This document shows positions 35,875-48,768 of a stretch of DNA of 59,853 nt, piece after piece. Origin of the DNA: Escherichia phage KS_A8. Position numbers and translations under genes: made by a program. The number at the start of each line of letters is the position of its first letter. Position 1 is the first letter of the stretch. Where the stretch lies: the sequence record PP627279.1; one strand, given 5' to 3'. Below the pieces are notes generated by a model, which saw only the letters and a program-made list of their open reading frames with translations, did not search any database and was not told where the DNA came from.

Positions 35875-35933
35875 TGCAACCCCCTATAAATAAGTAATGC
35901 CCCAATAGTAGGGGCATTAAATGTTGAAGTCAA

Positions 35934-37916
35934 TTAGAACGGAACGTAATCCGGATCATCTACTTGCACAGGATTAACCACATTGTTCACCGTTATACCT
36001 TGCGTATTCTGCGAAACAATATCGTCCCAGCTCACATCATCATTATAGCTTGGACCTTCTGTTGTTCCATCCTGCCCGTATACTTTAACCTGAATAGCTT
36101 CGTCGTCCTGTGGTGCTTCAAACTTACCGAAACACGTACCATCATAATCATAGTTCAAAATCTCAGGCCATTTCTTATTGGTATGAACTTTGATGTATTT
36201 CGGCGTTTTGAGCATCGCAGCAACATCAAGGGCTTCTTCAATAGTTTGTGGTAAAGGAAGATGCGTCCTTTTCTTCCACCATGCAACCGCTTTACGACCA
36301 GCCCAGTCGCCATGCAGCAAAGCTACCCATTCGCTAAATATTTTACTACCGCAATAATAAGTCACCTTCATTGTTGGAGGTTTGGAGCTGTCATTGCGTT
36401 TAGTGTGCTTCGCATAAGTGACATGCGTGACTTTAAAGTCTTCAACTACCGGAATGTCCTGTTTGATCAATGCTTCGGTACTTGCTGCCTTTTTAAGTTT
36501 CGTCTGGAACTTAAACTCATGACCGCAAAATCCTTCTTTAACATAATCCGTTCCACGTAGTCTGAATCCCTTCAAATATAATTGTTGAACTTGTTCCTGT
36601 GTAACGCTGTCCATAGGAATTGGTGCAAAGCCACCGCAATAGCGAGCAGATGCATGATTATACGACCCGCACACATCGCATTCTTTAACCGGAGCAGTAC
36701 CAGCACCTTTTTCGCCCGGGCGCTTAGGTTTAACAGGGTCGTTAATAGGCCCCAAACGGCGCGTATTACCGCTGAAATCCAGTACAAGGCAGTTTTGCTT
36801 AGGGCTTGCTGCAATAGCTTGCAAGCGACCTTCCTGCGTGGAAAGATCAAAGCCCTCCGCATATACCGGACGCGTACCGCGACCCAACATCTGAACCCAT
36901 AGCACCGCCGACGCAGTGGGGCGGAGCATGATAATTAGATCGAGCATCGGATGGTCGAAACCTGTGGTTAAGACGTTGTTGTTTGTCAATGCTCGAAACT
37001 CTCCACGCTTGAACTTTTCAATAATTTCATCACGCTCTTTTGCATCAAGCTTTGAGTGAATACATCCGCAACTAATACCCATATCGTTCAGCATATCACA
37101 CGCATCTTTAGCGTGTTCAATACCAGAACAAAATATAAGCCAGCTTTGACGGTCTTCACCACATTCAATGGCTTCCTCAAGTGCGCGGAGTGTTGCGTCG
37201 TCGCGGTTTACCGCACTTTGCAGCTCGCTTTGAATAAACTCACCGCCGCGTTTCCCTACACCATTGAGGTCCAGTTCCATCTTTGTACGCTTTGGCACAA
37301 CCGGAAGCAAATAACCTTGCTCCAGGAACCAGTTAAAGGCTTCATGGGTAGTCGCATCAAACGTTACTTTATCAAATAAAGCATCATCGTCTTCGTTTTC
37401 CTTAACAATTGAGCCGTAACCCAGTCGATAAGGTGTAGCGGTAAGACCGATAATTTTTAAATACGGGTTAACTTCACGCAATGCTGCAAAGAACTTCTTA
37501 TACATTGTTGCATCACGCGGACTAATAAGGTGCGCTTCATCCACAAAAATTAGATCTACCTTGCCGAACTTTTTAGGATGCTTAGCAACAGATGCGATCC
37601 CCGCAAATGTGATAAGATTATAAACTTCTTTACGCTTCAAACCTGCGCTGTAAATACCTGCTGGCGCTTCAGGCCAGACTTTCATTAATTTATCATAGTT
37701 TTGTGCAATTAACTCTTTGACATGAGTTAACATCATTACGCGCTGGTTTGGATACCATTTATAAAGCAGATCGAGGAACCCCGCGATAACGAGCGATTTT
37801 CCTGTCCCTGTTGGTAACAGGATCAAAGGGTTCCCCGCGTTACCCTTTTCAGCATCAAAATAGCGGAATACGCTATAAACTGCTTCCTGTTGATAATCGC
37901 GGAGCTGCATAATCAA
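35934..37916 (-). CDS. SF2 DNA helicase (DEAH box) with C-terminal Cys cluster
   Basis: RDYQQEAV Q-motif, Walker A LLPTGTGKS, motif II VDEAHLIS, C-terminal CDVCGSYNHASARYCGG. Confidence 0.75.
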   Translation of the reverse strand: MIMQLRDYQQEAVYSVFRYFDAEKGNAGNPLILLPTGTGKSLVIAGFLDLLYKWYPNQRVMMLTHVKELIAQNYDKLMKVWPEAPAGIYSAGLKRKEVYNLITFAGIASVAKHPKKFGKVDLIFVDEAHLISPRDATMYKKFFAALREVNPYLKIIGLTATPYRLGYGSIVKENEDDDALFDKVTFDATTHEAFNWFLEQGYLLPVVPKRTKMELDLNGVGKRGGEFIQSELQSAVNRDDATLRALEEAIECGEDRQSWLIFCSGIEHAKDACDMLNDMGISCGCIHSKLDAKERDEIIEKFKRGEFRALTNNNVLTTGFDHPMLDLIIMLRPTASAVLWVQMLGRGTRPVYAEGFDLSTQEGRLQAIAASPKQNCLVLDFSGNTRRLGPINDPVKPKRPGEKGAGTAPVKECDVCGSYNHASARYCGGFAPIPMDSVTQEQVQQLYLKGFRLRGTDYVKEGFCGHEFKFQTKLKKAASTEALIKQDIPVVEDFKVTHVTYAKHTKRNDSSKPPTMKVTYYCGSKIFSEWVALLHGDWAGRKAVAWWKKRTHLPLPQTIEEALDVAAMLKTPKYIKVHTNKKWPEILNYDYDGTCFGKFEAPQDDEAIQVKVYGQDGTTEGPSYNDDVSWDDIVSQNTQGITVNNVVNPVQVDDPDYVPF

Positions 37917-38821
37917 TCTTTCCCGTAATAGTTAGCTACTTGATAGTTTTGACAACCAACTTTTTGGCCCTGAGTATCTACTGCAACGGAATGGAAATTG
38001 CAATACCATGTTCCATCATCTTTTGGCTCAAGAAATTGGCATGTGCGACAGTTTACTTCCGGCATAGTTTTACGCCAGCACAATGAGGAGTGGTCACACC
38101 ATTTGCATTCGAAGAAGGTAGAGTCTTTGAATGCACGGTCAGGAATATCCGTAGCAATAGCAATCTGCACACCACGATCAATATACATGTCCGCAGTGAC
38201 CGGATCAAATGGAATAATTTCTGCGTAAACTTCATCATCGTTCTTGTTTACAGCAAGATATAACGCTGCACCAAGTCCAAGCTTTCGCATGTACACGTTC
38301 ATCTGCACATAGTGCTCAGGTTTAGCTTCTTTGACACCTTTAGCTTTCAGCTTCTTGAAAGACTTATCGTTGTGGGTCTTCATTTCAGTAAGCACAGGCA
38401 TTCCAGGCTGAACGTCCGGACAACCTATAACCACACCATCACAGGAACCGCCAAAGTGTCCGCCAGCTTCGCTGATACGGAACTGGTGTCCGTTTTCGTC
38501 CTGCTGATAGACCTGCATACCTGCCGCAAGAAGCATAGCAATAAAGCGCGCTTCTTCCAGATGTCCGCGGTTAAACAGTCGAAGCTGGCGTCCATCGAAC
38601 TCTTTACGCGTAGCCCAGCGATATCCGTAGAACAGCTTGCGAGCACATTGTTGCCCAATAAGGGAAGCACCTAAGTGGCTGCGGTTGCCGCTTTCGGGGC
38701 GATATGCGTCTTCAATTGTGGGAATAACTACGCCGAGATATTTACGGTAAGTCCCACCCTGATCTTTTTGCACACCGTCATTGATTGCTTGAAGTGTTTT
38801 TTCTGCAATATAAATAGCCAT
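37913..38821 (-). CDS. PD-(D/E)XK exonuclease (YqaJ/lambda Exo-like) with C-terminal Cys cluster
   Basis: 302 aa; LTEMKT and QMNVYMRKLG fit the D...E.K...QxxxY nuclease signature; four C-terminal Cys. Confidence 0.5.
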   Translation of the reverse strand: MAIYIAEKTLQAINDGVQKDQGGTYRKYLGVVIPTIEDAYRPESGNRSHLGASLIGQQCARKLFYGYRWATRKEFDGRQLRLFNRGHLEEARFIAMLLAAGMQVYQQDENGHQFRISEAGGHFGGSCDGVVIGCPDVQPGMPVLTEMKTHNDKSFKKLKAKGVKEAKPEHYVQMNVYMRKLGLGAALYLAVNKNDDEVYAEIIPFDPVTADMYIDRGVQIAIATDIPDRAFKDSTFFECKWCDHSSLCWRKTMPEVNCRTCQFLEPKDDGTWYCNFHSVAVDTQGQKVGCQNYQVANYYGKD

Positions 38822-38832
38822 TGGAGTACCTT

Positions 38833-38860
38833 AGAAAAATAAGCCGTCTTTCGACGGCTT
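38833..38860 (-). terminator. intrinsic terminator/attenuator after the SSB-like gene
   Basis: AAGCCGTC-TTTC-GACGGCTT hairpin; on the minus strand it is followed by a T-run. Confidence 0.45.
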
Positions 38861-38886
38861 AGGGACACTACAGAGGGAGGATTAAC

Positions 38887-39759
38887 TTACTGCTGCCACG
38901 GCGGGACTGCTGCTTGTGCCGGATGCGGTTCAGCTTGCTGCTGTGGCTGCGCTTGCTGCTGCGGTGCCGCTGCCTGACCCGGCTGTGCTACCTGCTGCGC
39001 CCACGGCTGCTGAGATGCTTCCGGCGCTACTGGCTGTTGTACCGGAGCTTGCTGAACTGGCTGCTGTGGCGCTGCGTTTTGAGCAGGGTTATCCCACGGC
39101 TGCGGTGCGGCATTCTGCCACGGTTGAGCTGCTGCGCCCTGCTGCGGTGCTGGTTGCTGAACAGGCTGCTGTTGCTGTACCGGAGCTTGCTGCTGTACAG
39201 GTGCTTGCTGTTGCTGAGCAAACGGGTTAGCTGCTGGCTGCTGCGGTGCTGCGCCCGGGAATGCCGGCTGCTGTGCTGGCGCACCTGCACCGAACGGGTT
39301 AGCTACTGCTACTTGAGCACCCATTGATGGAGCCTCTGCTGCTTTTTCTGCATATTTAACCGGATCGTTAATGTTAGCATAACCGTTAGGCTCGTTGCTG
39401 TCTTCATAACCTTCCTGAGAACGAACTTTCAGACGCAGGTTCAGCGGAATGTTATGCAATTGAGCAGGAGTATCCCAGCGAATTACACCAACTGCATGAG
39501 ATAGAGCGCCCAGTTGCTCGTAAGCGATACGCACAGTATCTTCGTTGTCATTGATGACGTTATAACGAGCAAAGATTTTACGCCCTTTAGCAAAACCGTC
39601 AATGATGCTAAACGTTACCTGGATCGCCATACCGCCATTTTTGGTCGGTTTAAATTCAGATGCTTCAATTACTGCTTTATACCAACCTTTCGGCAATGCG
39701 CCGTAAGAAGGTGCTTGATAGCTGCTCGCGTCAAAGTGGAAATTAGTTGGCATAGTCAT
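38887..39759 (-). CDS. putative ssDNA-binding protein (DUF669-like) with Gln/Pro/Ala-rich tail
   Basis: 290 aa; globular ~140-aa N-terminal domain then low-complexity tail (QQPAFPGAAPQQPAANPFAQQQQAPVQQQAPVQQQQPVQQ...); next to Sak4-like ATPase and exonuclease. Confidence 0.35.
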   Translation of the reverse strand: MTMPTNFHFDASSYQAPSYGALPKGWYKAVIEASEFKPTKNGGMAIQVTFSIIDGFAKGRKIFARYNVINDNEDTVRIAYEQLGALSHAVGVIRWDTPAQLHNIPLNLRLKVRSQEGYEDSNEPNGYANINDPVKYAEKAAEAPSMGAQVAVANPFGAGAPAQQPAFPGAAPQQPAANPFAQQQQAPVQQQAPVQQQQPVQQPAPQQGAAAQPWQNAAPQPWDNPAQNAAPQQPVQQAPVQQPVAPEASQQPWAQQVAQPGQAAAPQQQAQPQQQAEPHPAQAAVPPWQQ

Positions 39760-40487
39760 TAGTTGATACCTTTCATTTTGTTGATAACAGAACCTAAGTG
39801 TGGGACTTCAACCGCATCTAAACGTCCCGAACGATCCTTAGCGATTGTATTAAAGTCCGGTTGAGTTTGCAAGTAACGATATGAGTTACCTTGCTGATCC
39901 TTATTTACATTCAGACGAAACACTTCGTCGAAGAAGTAAGGGAGCATTTGCCCCAATTTGGACCCAGGCATAGATGGAGCATACGCGGTAACACCGGAGA
40001 CTTCATCTTTGTCTTTGCCCATTTTAGCAGACATATAAACATGTTTGCCAGGAATATCGCGAAATTTACGGATCAGATCTTGCATCTTTTCAAGCAAAGT
40101 ACCATAAGCTTGACGAGGATCTTTTGTTCCTTTTTTCGCATTGTTTAAACATTGTTCAGCAATTTCGCTCAAGCTGTCAAGCGCAATAGAATCGAAATAC
40201 TGCTGGTTAGCTGGAGTTACACACCACTGATAAGCAGCTTCAACGTCCTCCAGACATTTAACTTCAATAACTGGGATATCATAAACGATCGGCAATCCCA
40301 TATTACCATAAACGCGATTAAGGTTTTCCGCTGCAATAGATAACAGACCGGACTCTGCGCTGATCAAAATTGGTTTAGGTAGTGTGGCTACAAGGCTGGT
40401 TTTACCCATACCCGCTTCACCGTAAACCAGAATTTTAACGCCTGTGTCTTGCACTACTTGTGAAGACATTTTAATTTCAATGGCCAT
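39759..40487 (-). CDS. Sak4-like RecA-fold ATPase (recombination)
   Basis: 242 aa; Walker A VYGEAGMGKTSL near N-terminus; typical size and neighbourhood for phage Sak4-like proteins. Confidence 0.5.
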   Translation of the reverse strand: MAIEIKMSSQVVQDTGVKILVYGEAGMGKTSLVATLPKPILISAESGLLSIAAENLNRVYGNMGLPIVYDIPVIEVKCLEDVEAAYQWCVTPANQQYFDSIALDSLSEIAEQCLNNAKKGTKDPRQAYGTLLEKMQDLIRKFRDIPGKHVYMSAKMGKDKDEVSGVTAYAPSMPGSKLGQMLPYFFDEVFRLNVNKDQQGNSYRYLQTQPDFNTIAKDRSGRLDAVEVPHLGSVINKMKGIN

Positions 40488-40552
40488 TTAACGCCTCTCT
40501 TTTAAGTTCGTGCTCATTGTAACGTAATATACTTTGAACCCTCAATTACTTT

Positions 40553-41467
40553 TTAATCTAATGCCTGATCACTTTCATCGCGGAAATGCATAAAGTTAGC
40601 AAAACGCGGTTTATCTTTAACACCATGAGGGAAGTGTTTATATGAAATAGTCCGACCTTTAATCTTGTCAGGGTTATTCCAATAATAAATCTTATCCTCT
40701 TGCGTTAATTTACCAGGACTAACGTTGATTGTATTGCCCGTCTTAACGTCTTTACAAACAAGCGTCCCGATCATACCGTTAGGAACTTTATTTTCCTGAT
40801 GTGAAGATCGTGTAGTCCTTCCCAGCTCGTTAACGGTAGCTTCATTAAGATTAGTTTCACCCTCAATAATATCGAGGACAATAGCGTCTTCCTGAATAAA
40901 GCGTTTAATACGAAGATATCCACCTTCTCGAACTGTACCGCGCCCATGCTTATAAGGCTTTTCAGGATCGCGGATAATAATACCTTCATAACCCATATCA
41001 AGCCAGATGTTTTCCCAGTAGAGCAGCTCTTGCAAAGTCTTAACCACATACATTGGCACAACTTGCAGATCGAGCAGTTCACCTTTCGCGTGCTGTGTGG
41101 TTATAAAATCTTTCATCATGTTGTAGCGTGCTTCATAGCCCATCTCTGCAACACTTTCAGCACACAGATCAAAGATGTGCCATTTCAGGAACGGTTCACC
41201 TTCAATTGTGTTTACTGCACTGGTTGTTTTACGACACAGGTCCGGATCTGTCTCCACCCCTGCCGCAAGTTCACCGTCATAGCCCATGTACTGGGGACCG
41301 CTGAAAATTGCGCTTGTATGGCGGTTTTTAAACAGCTTTAAGCTGCGCCCTACTATTTGCCCATCCGGATTTAAACCGCGTACACCGTCGATTTTAGGCA
41401 GTATGCAGCACGGAAACTTAATCTTTTCTTCAACAGCGTCAGTCGCTAAATGTGGTTTGAATGCCAT
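40553..41467 (-). CDS. ATP-dependent DNA ligase
   Basis: Adenylation motif I LPKIDGVRG; about 300 aa as in small phage ligases; start set at MAFKPH (RBS GAGG); alternative ATG at 41479. Confidence 0.8.
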   Translation of the reverse strand: MAFKPHLATDAVEEKIKFPCCILPKIDGVRGLNPDGQIVGRSLKLFKNRHTSAIFSGPQYMGYDGELAAGVETDPDLCRKTTSAVNTIEGEPFLKWHIFDLCAESVAEMGYEARYNMMKDFITTQHAKGELLDLQVVPMYVVKTLQELLYWENIWLDMGYEGIIIRDPEKPYKHGRGTVREGGYLRIKRFIQEDAIVLDIIEGETNLNEATVNELGRTTRSSHQENKVPNGMIGTLVCKDVKTGNTINVSPGKLTQEDKIYYWNNPDKIKGRTISYKHFPHGVKDKPRFANFMHFRDESDQALD

Positions 41468-41475
41468 TGTTAACC

Positions 41476-42099
41476 TCATTCATAATAATCATGTTGATGG
41501 GAACTGCTGCGTATACCGCAACGTTCTAAAAGTATTGCAGCTTTTTGAGCTTTCTCTTTCATACGGGTATTACGGCGTAAATGTCCGCTACCCTTTTTAG
41601 GTCTATTTTCCTTTTTCTTTGCTTCGGAAATAAGCTCTTTGCATTCTTGCAAACGGATCTTACTTCTTTCCAATCGCATAGCAGAACGCGCACGTTCATC
41701 ACAAAATCTTTGAGCTTTGCTACGCTGGTCCTGATTACTTGTATGACCTTTAACGTGGCGAAACTCAATAGTAAGGTTATATTTACGAAGTTGATCGTTC
41801 AACCATTTGAAAGCTGTACCTTCCTGTTCGCTTTTCCAGCTTGCCTCTTTATACACTTTAATAGCTGTTGAACAATCTGTTTGCACAATTAAATGATCAC
41901 CCGATTGAATTAAATTAGCCTTCATCCCCTCCCAAATAACATTACAGATTGCCATTGTTTCAGCTGCATTATTATCAGGAGCTCCACGTAACGGCCCACC
42001 GTTAGCGTTATTTCCACGGTTACAGACTACCCATCCACCATATCCCGCGGCTTTTGTATTTGGGCAAAAACTTGCATCAGAAATAATTGTTACTCTCAT
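41476..42099 (-). CDS. ribonuclease H (RNase HI-like) with basic C-terminal extension
   Basis: MRVTIISDASF, AAETMAI, LIVQTDCS and RHVKGH fit the RNase HI D-E-D-H pattern; RBS AAGGAAAAAC. Confidence 0.55.
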   Translation of the reverse strand: MRVTIISDASFCPNTKAAGYGGWVVCNRGNNANGGPLRGAPDNNAAETMAICNVIWEGMKANLIQSGDHLIVQTDCSTAIKVYKEASWKSEQEGTAFKWLNDQLRKYNLTIEFRHVKGHTSNQDQRSKAQRFCDERARSAMRLERSKIRLQECKELISEAKKKENRPKKGSGHLRRNTRMKEKAQKAAILLERCGIRSSSHQHDYYE

Positions 42100-42110: not shown

Positions 42111-42136
42111 AATAAAAAGGGGGTCGAAAGACCCCC
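42111..42136 (-). terminator. intrinsic terminator upstream of the RNase H gene
   Basis: GGGGGTC-GAAA-GACCCCC hairpin; on the minus strand followed by TTTTTTATT. Confidence 0.5.
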
Positions 42137-42143
42137 TTGTAAG

Positions 42144-42385: not shown

Positions 42386-43177
42386 TTACAGTTTGTCTTT
42401 GAACTCTTCGATATATTGCTCGATCGGATACTGCTTGCGTTTGAAACGATCAAACAAGATTTTAGCAGATTCTACGTCTTCGTCGCTCTCTTTACTTGCG
42501 CCCGGTGCCATAAAATCACGCCATGTAAAACCGTTCAGATTATGCATCTTAGCGATGTGTTTATTGTAACGACTTTCCCAGTCCACACGCGGACCTTCCA
42601 TCTTGCGTAAACCGCGCCCAAGCACCTGTACATACAGATCTTTCTGACGTTGTACAGCTTCACCATTATAAGGTCCGGTTTTAAACTCAACAACACTACC
42701 GTTAAGATCTGCACCATCCGCAAAGTTGTGTAGCATAGTTTCAATAACGTCATTCAATGTTGGAACCGTCACTTTGCCCTGGGCAATGCCTGCCAAATAA
42801 CCGACGTTTTCTTCACCGTACAACTCGATCAGTTCTTTCTTGGTTGCTTCTGCTTCTTTGTTTGCGGACAAAGCCAACATCTGTTGTTCGAACATGTGTT
42901 CCTGTTCCAGGAAGTGAGCATAGCGCTCTTCATCCACTTTGCAGACAATCCATTTGTATTCAACATCCTTGCTGAAGTCCGGATACTGATCTACTTCTAC
43001 TACTTCCGTAGTAAAGAACTTGCCGTTATATTGAATAACAACTGTATCGCCCGGCTGCAATTCGTCACTTTCCAGAGCACGGTAGGTATAAAGGCGACCA
43101 CCCGCTTCAAACTTAACTTTGACAGTTACAACGCCTTTTAACAGAGCATGATAAGCTTTCTGAAATTCTTTACGCAT
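42386..43177 (-). CDS. hypothetical protein
   Basis: 263-aa ORF; no motif recognised. Confidence 0.3.
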   Translation of the reverse strand: MRKEFQKAYHALLKGVVTVKVKFEAGGRLYTYRALESDELQPGDTVVIQYNGKFFTTEVVEVDQYPDFSKDVEYKWIVCKVDEERYAHFLEQEHMFEQQMLALSANKEAEATKKELIELYGEENVGYLAGIAQGKVTVPTLNDVIETMLHNFADGADLNGSVVEFKTGPYNGEAVQRQKDLYVQVLGRGLRKMEGPRVDWESRYNKHIAKMHNLNGFTWRDFMAPGASKESDEDVESAKILFDRFKRKQYPIEQYIEEFKDKL

Positions 43178-43218: not shown

Positions 43219-43629
43219 TTAGGCTTTATTCGGCACAATTTCCAGAGACGCGGAACCAACTTTCGATTCAACGCACTGGTTAAAGACGGCGGCTTGCTCC
43301 GCTGTAAGTTTACGCCAAGCCGCAACTTTCAACACAGGTTTATTTTCCACAAGCTGATCAACGTTAACACCAACTTTAATCAGATCGCCCAGGATTCCGT
43401 TAAGGCTTGGAAGATCAATTTTGCGATCAATCTTGTGAGTCATTTTCATAACCCCGCCAGTAATTTCAACCTTATTAGTCCCTTCAGATGGAGCAGGGAA
43501 ATAGGACTTAATAATCTTTTCGCGTAGTGCTCGCTCGCGAGCTTGAAGCTTTTGTAATTCTGCTTTGGTTTTATACCACTCAATTACATCTGCTTCTGTT
43601 GCTTGTACTGCTTTATCTGCGTCGAACAT
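43219..43629 (-). CDS. hypothetical protein
   Basis: Start set at MFDADKAV (RBS GAGGA); 136 aa. Confidence 0.3.
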   Translation of the reverse strand: MFDADKAVQATEADVIEWYKTKAELQKLQARERALREKIIKSYFPAPSEGTNKVEITGGVMKMTHKIDRKIDLPSLNGILGDLIKVGVNVDQLVENKPVLKVAAWRKLTAEQAAVFNQCVESKVGSASLEIVPNKA

Positions 43630-43870
43630 TTTTCTATCCTCTGTTGTGTTTCGATGTATGTATAATAGCACATCCATGTGACAGGGCAAGACTCAATCTG
43701 TATCAATTAATCTTTTTAAACGGATTAGTAATCTAGCAACCTTCCTCCATTCGGCATCCTCCATTAATGGTGAAGGCTTATACGCTTCAGGTATCGGACA
43801 AGGTATATAGGGTTCCATGTCAGATATTACTTGCTTTGATAACTTTTTCTTCCGTTTACCCATAAATAGC

Positions 43871-44536: not shown

Positions 44537-45004
44537 TTATTGGATTGAACCGCGATTAATTAGCCATTGTTTCGCGTGCGCTTTAAAAATAATGCGGTAG
44601 TCATCAAGACTAATTTCCGCGCGGATGGAATCTTTAACTTCATACCACTGCCATTCACCATTACTGAAGACAACCGGATTAAGTGGTAGAACAACCTTCC
44701 ATCCTTTACGTTCTATTTTATACATCAGAACTGGATATCTGCCAAGCTCTTTAGCAGATTGAACAGTCTGCTTCCACCATGTGTTTACTTGTGGTGTAGC
44801 ATGGTTTTTTACTTCAACTGCATGGTGACATGTATTGCTAATGTCGCAACCACCGACCGCACTTTGATTCTGGTTACGCTGAGCAATAGGTTTTTCCGGT
44901 AACTGCATCCCCAGCTCTGCGTAGATTTCGGCATAAATTGCATTAAAGAAATCACATACTTCCCGCTCACCGCGTTGACCTTTAGCGCGAATATTTACTG
45001 CCAT
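44537..45004 (-). CDS. PD-(D/E)XK nuclease, Holliday-junction resolvase-like (putative)
   Basis: Start set at MAVNI (RBS GGAGA); GQRGEREV...GGCDIS...VEVKN fits an E...D...ExK nuclease core. Confidence 0.35.
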   Translation of the reverse strand: MAVNIRAKGQRGEREVCDFFNAIYAEIYAELGMQLPEKPIAQRNQNQSAVGGCDISNTCHHAVEVKNHATPQVNTWWKQTVQSAKELGRYPVLMYKIERKGWKVVLPLNPVVFSNGEWQWYEVKDSIRAEISLDDYRIIFKAHAKQWLINRGSIQ

Positions 45005-46403: not shown

Positions 46404-46430
46404 AAAGGGCCGAAAGGCCCTTTATTTATT
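46404..46430. terminator. bidirectional intrinsic terminator
   Basis: AAAGGGCC-GAAA-GGCCCTTT hairpin followed by ATTTATT. Confidence 0.55.
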
Positions 46431-48768
46431 CCTCTTCACCTAAGTTTGCCATAATTCCTTCAACATCTTGCGTAATGCGCCAAGCTGCCCCAGTAAATCC
46501 CAGTTTAATAGTCTCCTCCCGTGTTACCGGAACAAGTGCACCCATAGCAACCATCTCCTTGATTGTAGACTCGATTGCAGCGGATAATCCGTGATGATAG
46601 TTTTTAAACGCGGACTTACTTGCAAGACGCGTAGTAATATCGCCCCGCGTGATAATACCTTCTTTGCGCAAATCTACACGTTTAACTTTCACCCAGTCTT
46701 TAGTTAGATAATTCACACAGACCTGACACATAGTACGGATACGAGCTTCATCATTAGTCCCAATGCCTCCGCTATGCCATTCCTTCATAATAATATCCTG
46801 CCCATGACGCACGAAGTCCAAAGCCCATTGCACATGATAGGTTTGTACCACCGGATTGATCCAGTTCTCACCCACAGCTAACAAGGCAGAAAGTCGCAAG
46901 ACCTTTAGGTGAGCACGGTTCCACGGCTGACGAATCGCTTCGTCTTTGGTTGCGTTAATATTGCGATCACATTCATCGTTAAACTGATCGCATAATGCTT
47001 CCGCATCCGGGCTAAACTGTACTTCAATACTCTGATGCTTTGCCATTGTCACTAACGTGTGGTTAACGAGATGGCACACCATGTCCTTCAAATGCTGATC
47101 CATTGTAGTCTGCTGATTTTTGTTTAAAGGTGGTCGATCACCTTCATAGCGTACAACATGGAAACGGGATAAGAATCCATCCTCCATCATTTCACGGGTT
47201 AATGCTTCAAAGAACGTATCCGGTGTCGTTTCGCCCATGATGCTATATGCCACACCTTGTTGAGCTTCAGTATTATTAGCCTTATCAGAATAAGACATAC
47301 CACCAACGATAGACATCTGACCGGACTTTTGATAAACATCGGTAAGGTCATTCTTGAAACTTTGCATCGGCGAGCCTGCTGGAGCCGTTGCCATTGCTTT
47401 GATAATTTTACCGAACTCACCATTCAGGTTGATAAAAGATTGTTTGTCTGCAAAAGATTTACGCAGTGCAGATCCAGAAGCGCATCTATCAAAAGATACA
47501 AAGCTATGAATCTGCGGAAACTGGTCCTGAATCTGGCTAACTATATTAGACAGCCCACTGTTCAACGTCTCTTTACCAACACCAGAACGAGCAATTAAGA
47601 CAAAATATCCATTAAGACCGGATTGCGGGATCTGCCATACTTTCCCGCATACCCCAGCCATAAATCCGAGTGATGTAACAATAGAGATTTCTTTCACTGG
47701 TCTGACGGATGCTTTGTATATATATTTAGCAATCTCCCCAGCAAGCCCCGGCGGCCAGTCAATAGCTGTTGCATCAACGGATGTGCTTTCTGCAACTACT
47801 GTCTGCCCCTGTGTTGTTTCAACAGTTACGGGCATTTCCGCTACCTGCTGCATTGCACTGTGTGCAGCTTGCATACGAGCAGCATAATCCCGCGCCAGCG
47901 CCGCTACGTTTTCCTGGGCAATGCGCTCACGCTCCATGCGACCGCGACACATACGCAAGCAACGGTCAATATGAACATTGTTCTTATTAGCCTTCTCACG
48001 TTTGCCCAGCGCACTATAACGGAACAGACGGCGACATTGCTCATTACTTTCCGTGTAAAATGCATACATAGAAATAAGGGCAAGGTCTGCTTCAGACTGG
48101 GAAGGGAATCCCATTTCAACCCATTCACCATTAAATAACCGCGCATACTTATCGCCGTTATCTGCTTCAAGCGCACGCTGATGAATAGTTGCATCATCTT
48201 CTACCGGATCTTTTTCTACCAGTTCAATTTCATATGTCTTGCGCTGAAGATCAATTTCATTCACAAGCATAGTAAGGTAATGATCACGTTCTGCGACTGG
48301 TTTGTTGTAGACGGGATTGCCCGTGCAGATAATAAAACGCTCCTGACTATAAACCTCGACACCATCACGTCGACGACCTTTACCGATGTTACCTCTTAAC
48401 CACAGGTGAACACCCAGGCCTGAGCGACTCACTTCGGTGTAAGTATCGAACGCAGTCATGATCTGTTCGAAGCGGCGCAACTGATCCGGCGTCGTGTGCT
48501 TCTTGGGATCAGGTTCATTGGTTGCATTCTTCACATCCAGGTCGATGCAGGTGAACGGGTCTTGTGCAGTAAGCACGAATCCAATATAAGGTTTATTGAA
48601 ATGAGCGGCGCAACCTTTGGCAGCTTCAAACGTCATAAGCATATCCGGATCGGTAACGTCCGCCGCCATCAAACGTCCAATATCGCTATCCCATACCAAC
48701 GGCTTTTTATCCGCATCGGCGACCGCCCATTGTGGGAAAGCTTTAATTTCAGCGGGAAACAGTTCCAT
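46426..48768 (-). CDS. DNA primase/helicase (prim-pol-like N-terminus plus P-loop NTPase)
   Basis: 780 aa; N-terminal FTCIDLDVKN and SRSGLGVHLWL resemble prim-pol motifs; central Walker A LIARSGVGKET. Confidence 0.55.
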   Translation of the reverse strand: MELFPAEIKAFPQWAVADADKKPLVWDSDIGRLMAADVTDPDMLMTFEAAKGCAAHFNKPYIGFVLTAQDPFTCIDLDVKNATNEPDPKKHTTPDQLRRFEQIMTAFDTYTEVSRSGLGVHLWLRGNIGKGRRRDGVEVYSQERFIICTGNPVYNKPVAERDHYLTMLVNEIDLQRKTYEIELVEKDPVEDDATIHQRALEADNGDKYARLFNGEWVEMGFPSQSEADLALISMYAFYTESNEQCRRLFRYSALGKREKANKNNVHIDRCLRMCRGRMERERIAQENVAALARDYAARMQAAHSAMQQVAEMPVTVETTQGQTVVAESTSVDATAIDWPPGLAGEIAKYIYKASVRPVKEISIVTSLGFMAGVCGKVWQIPQSGLNGYFVLIARSGVGKETLNSGLSNIVSQIQDQFPQIHSFVSFDRCASGSALRKSFADKQSFINLNGEFGKIIKAMATAPAGSPMQSFKNDLTDVYQKSGQMSIVGGMSYSDKANNTEAQQGVAYSIMGETTPDTFFEALTREMMEDGFLSRFHVVRYEGDRPPLNKNQQTTMDQHLKDMVCHLVNHTLVTMAKHQSIEVQFSPDAEALCDQFNDECDRNINATKDEAIRQPWNRAHLKVLRLSALLAVGENWINPVVQTYHVQWALDFVRHGQDIIMKEWHSGGIGTNDEARIRTMCQVCVNYLTKDWVKVKRVDLRKEGIITRGDITTRLASKSAFKNYHHGLSAAIESTIKEMVAMGALVPVTREETIKLGFTGAAWRITQDVEGIMANLGEEE

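Follow-up and report, generated by a model that had tools for sequence, protein, structure and literature searches.

Introduction

A Sak4-type annealing system has been described in phage HK620, whose Sak4 protein (HkaL) binds single-stranded DNA (ssDNA) and anneals it in an ATP-dependent manner without strand exchange, and is stimulated by the neighbouring ssDNA-binding protein (SSB; HkaK) via the last six residues of that SSB, NDYPPF (PMC5928155). The same study reported that about 80% of sak4 genes adjoin a cognate SSB gene. The Sak4 protein of Pseudomonas phage PA73 supports oligonucleotide recombination in Escherichia coli above background (PMC2896510). In this study, we analysed the DNA of Escherichia phage KS_A8 (record PP627279.1), whose whole stretch of 59,853 nucleotides (nt) is called the window and provides all coordinates, and we describe a module of genes, all on the minus strand, for a Sak4-like ATPase, an SSB of the DUF669 family, a PD-(D/E)XK nuclease and a RadD-like helicase (Table 1).

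The module resembles that of HK620 in that a gene for an ATPase consisting only of the AAA_24 core lies upstream of, and overlaps, a gene for a DUF669-related SSB, and the recruitment of Sak4 by SSB-coated ssDNA, followed by ATP-dependent annealing, would be expected here as well (PMC5928155). The two systems differ at the end of the SSB, which is the acidic NDYPPF in HK620 and a non-acidic PPWQQ, past a 150-residue linker rich in glutamine, alanine and proline (Q/A/P), in KS_A8; further, HK620 uses Abc2 to hijack RecBCD, whereas KS_A8 encodes its own nuclease and helicase. In PA73, gp032-gp029 encode Sak4, SSB, a Cas4-domain exonuclease and a superfamily 2 (SF2) helicase in an order identical to that of the KS_A8 module; the PA73 nuclease is 32% identical to that of KS_A8 and holds both of the cysteine sets described below, and the PA73 SSB has a tryptophan-containing tail of glycine, glutamine and proline ending in APWGQR. 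PA73 differs in a 47-residue insertion in the nuclease, and in its host and genome backbone. With lambda Red (Exo/Beta) and RecET, the module would share the principle of a 5'->3' exonuclease feeding an annealing protein. Unlike these systems, it has a RecA-fold ATPase and not a Rad52-like ring as the putative annealase, a nuclease with eight conserved cysteines and a RecB-type QxxxY motif, and a dedicated SSB and helicase, without Gam.

Gene order and conservation of the module

Our analysis indicates that the module is likely to be the recombination and recombination-dependent-replication pathway of a virulent Seuratvirus phage, with the hairpin behind the SSB gene as its partial terminator. 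This reading is built on the family assignments, motifs, predicted folds, gene order and hairpin established here, and takes the activities of the proteins by analogy from HK620, PA73, RadD and Cas4/lambda Exo. The initial annotation of this DNA had proposed three adjacent, co-oriented genes as a phage-borne annealing/recombination system. The three open reading frames were recovered with exactly the proposed ends, all on the minus strand, and their family assignments support such a system, while the functional unit is larger than three genes and comprises ligase, Sak4, SSB, hairpin, nuclease and RadD-like helicase.

Positions 35900-41500 are 93-97% identical, over their full length, to 32 deposited phage genomes (among them the Escherichia phages KS_W4, OddieOddie, Seurat and CAjan and the BASEL Seuratvirus isolates), and by this similarity the window is a nearly complete genome of the genus Seuratvirus (Queuovirinae). 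The records of these relatives already bear the labels 'Sak4-like ssDNA annealing protein', 'Cas4-domain exonuclease', 'DNA helicase' and 'DNA ligase' at matching positions. Because near-identical phages carry these annotations, the module is already known and is nothing new to the databases.

The conservation of the module was evaluated in 82 related loci, namely 80 IMG/VR loci fetched with the nuclease alignment, together with JenK1 (Nonagvirus) and Pseudomonas phage PAB2. The order of Sak4, SSB, nuclease and helicase is kept throughout this set, which covers Nonagvirus, Pseudomonas, Xanthomonas and metagenomic phages. The gene of a RadD-like SF2 helicase directly follows that of the nuclease in 80 of the 82 loci, a DUF669 SSB gene precedes the nuclease gene in every locus with sufficient flank, and a ligase gene lies upstream of Sak4 in 48 loci, which are all those with sufficient flank. 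The slot before the SSB gene is always occupied by an AAA_24 ATPase, either the orthologue or a diverged variant of 278 residues (92 bits on PF13479). The orthologue is replaced in about 20 loci (L021, L024, L032-L034 and others) by diverged AAA_24 proteins of 275-280 residues with the Walker A box GxEKxGKTT, which by their sequences form a second subfamily in the Sak4 slot. Neither an Rfam family nor a tRNA was found in the whole window.

A Sak4-family ATPase

The gene product described initially as a Walker A-bearing, RecA-fold ATPase of Sak4 type fits that description in profile searches. With its Walker A box GEAGMGKT at residues 23-30, it matches PF13479 (AAA_24) with 97.4 bits (cut-off 27; E-value (E) 1.2e-27) over residues 16-220 of 242, and phrog_124 at E 1.7e-59, which bears the name 'Sak4-like ssDNA annealing protein'. 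An alignment of 47 homologues from the related loci showed that the Walker A GKT, E45, D104, R204 and R219 are each at least 96% conserved, and that D104, the Walker B aspartate, is kept in 98%. The Pfam scan found no domain beyond AAA_24 in the protein, neither a RecA C-terminal nor a Rad51 N-terminal DNA-binding domain, and a sequence search against PDB chains returned no meaningful match. Homology to the Sak4 protein of PA73 extends over the full length (28% identity over residues 4-237, E 3e-30), and HK620 Sak4 also passes PF13479 (30 bits). The adjacent cognate SSB gene that is expected of sak4 genes is present in KS_A8, where the stop codon of the Sak4 gene and the ATG of the SSB gene overlap by one base (TAATG). 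By these matches the ATPase is a member of the Sak4/AAA_24 family, and by analogy with its relatives it may anneal ssDNA.

A DUF669 SSB with a non-acidic tip

The description of the second protein as SSB-like, with a globular N-domain and a Q/P/A tail, was likewise borne out. It matches PF05037 (DUF669) with 52.6 bits (cut-off 21; E 6.6e-14) and phrog_6015, named 'SSB', with E 5e-37, and all 120 SSB homologues among the matches listed carry PF05037. The DUF669 family has been tied to the SSBs of phages N4 and HK620 (PMC4889955, PMC5928155). The AlphaFold2 model of the N-domain (residues 1-140; 44 homologues) has a predicted local distance difference test (pLDDT) score of 89.3 and the beta-beta-beta-alpha-beta-beta topology of an oligonucleotide/oligosaccharide-binding (OB) fold. 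The closest solved fold found with this model by Foldseek is PrgE of plasmid pCF10 (PDB 8s4t; E 9e-6, template modelling score 0.55), with dozens of SSBs from bacteria ranked behind it. Among OB-fold proteins, PrgE is atypical and phage-like, and it bears an N-terminal arm (PMC11137577). It differs from the KS_A8 SSB in that similarity at the sequence level is undetectable and in that it has no long Q/A/P tail; PrgE, for its part, binds in a filament-like mode. Sequence and profile searches against PDB chains linked the SSB to no solved structure, the sole profile match being a low-complexity ZipA linker. The N-domain is predicted to be an OB fold, and its family suggests that it binds ssDNA.

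The last 150 residues (38890-39339, minus strand) contain 46 Q, 38 A and 30 P (76% Q/A/P), no lysine or arginine, and four PW motifs, each of the form (Q/P)PW; the local G+C rises to 0.50 because of this composition. Arrays of an 18-nt repeat were reported by Tandem Repeats Finder at 38924-38971 and 39148-39217, both within the tail, and the length of the SSB ranges from 262 to 294 residues among near-identical phages, with variation in the length of the tail. The protein ends in AVPPWQQ, and aspartate and glutamate are absent from its last 10 residues. An acidic C-terminal tail has been given as a trait of DUF669 proteins (PMC4889955), and the expected acidic tail or tip is missing from the KS_A8 SSB. 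Among 61 distinct SSB homologues from the related loci, 57 have PPW within their last 14 residues and none has an acidic xPF tip; their last 10 residues contain 0.31 acidic residues on average. BLASTP gave no alignment between the SSBs of KS_A8 and PA73, whose N-domains look alike by eye. In most Seuratvirus records the SSB gene is labelled 'hypothetical protein'.

Viral DUF669 proteins have been read by Kazlauskas et al. as replicative SSBs, carried by phages without other SSBs (PMC4889955), and the cluster could accordingly serve primarily the replication fork instead of recombination. The DUF669 protein would then be the replicative SSB and the AAA_24 protein a loader or remodeller for the phage primase-helicase or clamp, with Okazaki fragments or stalled forks as the substrates of nuclease and helicase. 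The position of the cluster among genes for RNase H, ligase, dUTPase, primase, clamp and polymerase is in keeping with this role, and Sak and Sak4 are reported to be needed for phage replication in Staphylococcus aureus (PMC5499656). However, the two Sak4 proteins that have been tested both anneal ssDNA, and a loader activity is not reported for the family in the literature examined. Moreover, the two roles overlap, because virulent phages commonly couple recombination to replication. We consider it improbable that the module serves primarily the fork in place of recombination.

An eight-cysteine PD-(D/E)XK nuclease

The nuclease had been annotated initially as a YqaJ-like PD-(D/E)XK protein with a cysteine cluster. 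Its catalytic motifs, eight invariant cysteines and a lambda-Exo-like predicted fold agree with the broader class, while the YqaJ assignment found no counterpart in a match to PF09588. The best profile match is phrog_1990, named 'Cas4-domain exonuclease' (E 1.3e-117), followed by weaker matches to a CRISPR-associated PHROG and a RecE-like PHROG. In 29 homologues with 53-73% identity, D128, E146-x-K148 and Q173-x3-Y177 are invariant, as are the Cas4-type cysteines C59, C239, C242 and C248 (one N-terminal cysteine and a CX2CX5C motif) and a second set, C258, C261, C274 and C290. Of 145 full-length distant representatives, 138 have both sets; the family counts 4,140 representatives at 50% identity. 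The sequence search against the PDB returned nothing meaningful, and the profile search returned zinc-ribbon proteins at non-significant scores. The predicted fold is nearest to those of lambda Exo, LHK-Exo, Cas4, Dna2 and RecE, and the best Foldseek match is Cas4 SSO0001 (E 3e-4); the model points to a lambda-Exo-like, Cas4-like fold. With Cas4 proteins (SSO0001, Pcal_0546; PF01930/PF12705) the KS_A8 nuclease shares the D...ExK and QxxxY motifs, the single N-terminal cysteine and the C-terminal CX2CX5C. Unlike them, it has no CRISPR context, matches neither Pfam model, and shows two additions, a further invariant CX2C...C...C module at the C-terminus and a helical extension at the N-terminus.

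The nuclease and helicase genes are adjacent in nearly all related loci and 2 nt apart in KS_A8, and a fusion or linkage of Cas4-like domains with helicases is typical of machines for end processing and for defence (PMC5704561). Such a pair might form a degradation machine like RecBCD or AddAB, used mainly to break down host DNA for its nucleotides or for counter-defence, for example with a Cas4-like decoy that passes host DNA to CRISPR adaptation, and not to prepare substrates for Sak4; a Cas4-like protein of a Campylobacter phage promotes the acquisition of host spacers (PMC5704561). However, the pair always lies directly downstream of Sak4 and SSB, co-oriented and presumably on one transcript, no Gam-, Abc- or CRISPR-related genes were found near the module, and the placement of RecE-like exonucleases beside recombinases is a general pattern (Lopes et al., PMC2896510). 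A role in degradation separate from annealing is very unlikely in our judgement.

A conserved hairpin behind the SSB gene

A terminator hairpin between the SSB and nuclease genes had been noted in the initial annotation as a sign of differential expression, and both the structure and its interpretation gained from comparison of the related loci. The hairpin reads TAAGCCGTC-GAAA-GACGGCTTA-TTTTTCT and lies between the stop codon of the SSB gene and the start codon of the nuclease gene, whose ATG is 11 nt from the T-tract and 18 nt from the stem. Hairpins were searched for within 100 nt past the SSB stop codon by a rule that called for a stem of at least 7 bp with at least 4 G-C pairs and at least 4 T in the next 8 nt. 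By this rule, a hairpin was found in 55 of 64 related loci, at a median distance of 15 nt from the SSB stop codon, compared with 28 of 1280 random windows of equal length (2.2%) and none of 22 ligase-Sak4 spacers. The stem sequences are wholly different between clades, and it is the structure and position that are conserved. In the region as a whole, terminator-like sites are not enriched (14 found vs 10.9 +/- 3.3 expected). In the RefSeq record of Seurat, the flanking terminators are annotated and the post-SSB hairpin (L084 15931-15987) is not, despite its identical sequence.

In KS_A8 and about 31 related loci, the start codon of the nuclease gene is only 10-30 nt past the hairpin, so that there is no room for a promoter between them. 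These data suggest that the hairpin is probably a partial terminator (attenuator), which would lower nuclease and helicase relative to Sak4 and SSB. In about 24 of the 55 loci with a hairpin, however, the distance to the nuclease gene exceeds 90 nt and reaches up to 2 kb, which leaves room for promoters or inserted genes, and our promoter scan was limited to sigma-70-type sites. The hairpin might instead stabilise or process the 3' end of the mRNA, or simply close the upstream operon; nuclease and helicase would then be driven by a phage-specific promoter that a sigma-70 scan does not recognise. In KS_A8 and the other loci with short spacing, the only place for such a promoter would be upstream of the hairpin or overlapping with it, and we regard this explanation as the less likely one, with more weight than the alternatives raised above for the proteins.

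A RadD-like helicase with an SSB-like tip

The ATG of the helicase gene (37910) lies 2 nt past the nuclease stop codon. The protein matches NF053632 (RadD) with E 8.6e-79 over residues 3-386, and its 265 bits are under the equivalog cut-off of 720; by this score it is RadD-like and not RadD. RadD of E. coli speeds RecA strand exchange, and it binds and is stimulated by the C-terminal tip of SSB (SSB-Ct; PMC8887467, PMC10238739). The KS_A8 protein is similar in that an SF2 protein with a RadD-like core is encoded near a RecA-like protein and an SSB. It differs in its unlike C-terminal half and in that it itself ends in an SSB-Ct-like tip and does not only bind one. Its Seuratvirus homologue in Bas22, 'Heli22', is a trigger of Retron-Eco11, and so are the branch-processing helicases UvsW and T5 D10 (PMC12746101).

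The KS_A8 helicase ends in ...VDDPDYVPF, past an acidic, presumably flexible linker, and its counterparts end in FDDDIPF (JenK1) and LDDDIPF (PAB2). Of 65 distinct complete homologues, 56 end in [ILVF]P[FL], 32 of them exactly in DDDIPF, which is the SSB-Ct hexapeptide of E. coli (PMC5872125). The helicase of PA73 has no acidic tip, and the DNA polymerase processivity factor of that phage, gp027 (L085 25688-26830, minus strand), ends in ...NYEDDIPF. To judge from these termini, the acidic tip seems to shift from one replication protein to another. A relocated acidic xPF tip was not found in the available DNA of nine loci whose helicase lacks the tip. A full-text literature search of limited scope returned no report of phage helicases with a DDDIPF tip or of SSB-Ct mimics.

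Based on these termini, we tentatively propose, as an idea with somewhat less than an even chance of being correct, that the role of the SSB tail as a 'hub' is split, the SSB having a private, non-acidic PPW tip and 2-6 internal PW motifs and the helicase carrying an SSB-Ct-like tip and acting as an SSB-Ct mimic. The helicase tip could dock in the SSB-Ct pockets of host genome-maintenance proteins and recruit them or compete with host SSB. It could alternatively dock on the phage Sak4, by analogy with the HK620 relative that binds the similar NDYPPF, or, as a third option, stimulate a RadD-type pocket of the helicase itself. This swap of tail motifs is a lead and not a result.

Proposed pathway and points against it

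In the recombination pathway that we favour, the Cas4/RecB-type nuclease would resect double-strand ends 5'->3', as its family and motifs suggest, probably together with the linked RadD-like helicase. Abundant SSB, by its predicted OB fold and the function of its distant HK620 relative, would coat the exposed ssDNA. Sak4, a RecA core without a secondary DNA-binding domain, would be recruited to the coated ssDNA and anneal it to complementary ssDNA in an ATP-dependent manner, without strand exchange. The helicase may then migrate or remodel the branched joints, the Hjc-like PD-(D/E)XK nuclease encoded at 44537-45004 may cut junctions, and the ligase may seal nicks. Partial termination at the hairpin would yield Sak4 and SSB in excess of nuclease and helicase, which would depend on read-through, without a promoter of their own.

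Several points weigh against this pathway. All activities in it are transferred from relatives by analogy, and the polarity and metal content of the nuclease, as well as its partnership with the helicase, are inferred. In BLASTP, the ATPase aligned with HK620 Sak4 at the Walker A box alone (E 0.01), and the SSB showed no similarity to HK620 SSB; because these comparisons are essentially negative, the link to HK620 rests on shared profiles and the literature, and in hmmscan HK620 SSB had no match to PF05037. The Sak4-loading tip NDYPPF of HK620 SSB is missing from the KS_A8 SSB; since the latter ends in PPWQQ, the mechanism that couples SSB to Sak4 may differ from that of HK620. The nuclease matches no NCBIfam model and no Pfam family at E <= 10, PF01930, PF12705 and the YqaJ family PF09588 included, and its family matches are confined to PHROGs. 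The activity of PA73 Sak4 in E. coli is about 2000-fold under that of Red-beta (PMC2896510). Finally, the sigma-70-like promoter match in the ligase-Sak4 spacer (TTGAGG-18-TACAAT, 9/12, 40516-40545, minus strand) recurs in 6 of 21 loci (vs 5% of controls) and is not conserved, for which reason we claim no promoter before Sak4.

Flanking genes and other features

The module and the features around it are listed in Table 1.

Table 1. Positions in the KS_A8 window of the genes and hairpins of the module and its surroundings.
Feature	Coordinates	Strand	Details
Terminator-like hairpin past the helicase gene, end of transcription unit	35895-35919	minus	matching site annotated as terminator in Seurat RefSeq
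RadD-like SF2 helicase with acidic linker and SSB-Ct-like tip DDPDYVPF (35937-35960)	35934-37910	minus	658 residues; ResIII and Helicase_C domains
PD-(D/E)XK exonuclease-type nuclease with Cas4/RecB motifs, Cas4-type four-cysteine set and second C-terminal four-cysteine (zinc-ribbon-like) set	37913-38821	minus	302 residues
Intrinsic-terminator-like hairpin between SSB and nuclease genes	38833-38861	minus	9-bp stem, GAAA loop, TTTTTCT
DUF669 SSB with predicted OB-fold N-domain (39340-39759), 150-residue Q/A/P tail and non-acidic PPWQQ tip (PPW 38896-38904)	38887-39759	minus	290 residues
Sak4-family (AAA_24) RecA-core-only ATPase, putative ATP-dependent ssDNA annealing protein	39759-40487	minus	242 residues; profile matches
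ATP-dependent DNA ligase, upstream of Sak4	40553-41479	minus	phrog_114 E 2e-59; Pfam DNA_ligase_OB_2, DNA_ligase_A_M
RNase H, whose gene opens the RNase H - ligase - Sak4 - SSB stretch	41476-42099	minus	PF00075 E 1.9e-9; phrog_531 E 5.9e-39
Terminator-like hairpin upstream of the RNase H gene, boundary of the preceding unit	42117-42138	minus	annotated as terminator in Seurat RefSeq
PD-(D/E)XK endonuclease with Hjc-like motif pattern, candidate junction resolvase	44537-45004	minus	Pfam PDDEXK_15 (PF24608) E 1.8e-13

The resolvase-like nuclease that had been proposed near the module corresponds to an open reading frame with a clear match to PDDEXK_15. K8, G9, E13, R14, D54, E64 and K66 are invariant in its 35 homologues and make up the pattern of archaeal Hjc (KG...ER / D / ExK); its best PDB profile match is Hjc of P. 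furiosus (1gef), at a non-significant E of 0.21. PHROG and RefSeq name this protein a 'RusA-like' Holliday junction resolvase, a name that we rejected for the PD-(D/E)XK, Hjc-like reading on the strength of the Pfam match and the motif pattern. Because the RusA fold differs from PD-(D/E)XK, the name looks like a misnomer and is probably wrong.

Two further genes were observed upstream. Between the gene of RNase H and a DUF7173 gene (43219-43689), positions 42386-43177 encode a protein of 263 residues that matches phrog_27666 (E 5.6e-188) and, below threshold, a PriA 3'-DNA-binding domain (E 0.007). Positions 46426-48768 encode a protein of 780 residues, labelled 'DNA primase' in Seurat, with an NrS-1 polymerase helix-bundle domain (PF22763) at 28.2 bits, barely over the cut-off, which suggests a replication initiator of the primase-polymerase type.

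Significance

This analysis mainly confirms existing annotation. It offers a useful correction for Seuratvirus records: the gene between those of Sak4 and nuclease, labelled there as 'hypothetical protein', encodes a DUF669 SSB, and behind it lies a conserved terminator-like hairpin that has no annotation. For two details, the conserved non-acidic PPW tip of the SSB and the SSB-like tip on the helicase, we found no earlier report. Further work is warranted on the swap of tail motifs, on the hairpin conserved behind the SSB gene and on the family of eight-cysteine nucleases, for which Pfam has no model.

For recombineering, the module could supply a candidate pair of ATP-dependent annealase and SSB. 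Its proteins are also the kinds of target that bacterial defence senses: Retron-Eco11 senses the helicase, and Stl2 of Staphylococcus aureus pathogenicity islands targets Sak4-type recombinases. If the tail motifs act as proposed, the helicase would be a natural mimic of the SSB tip on a protein that is not an SSB, and it would offer a way to study how phages connect to the SSB interaction network of their host or shield themselves from it.

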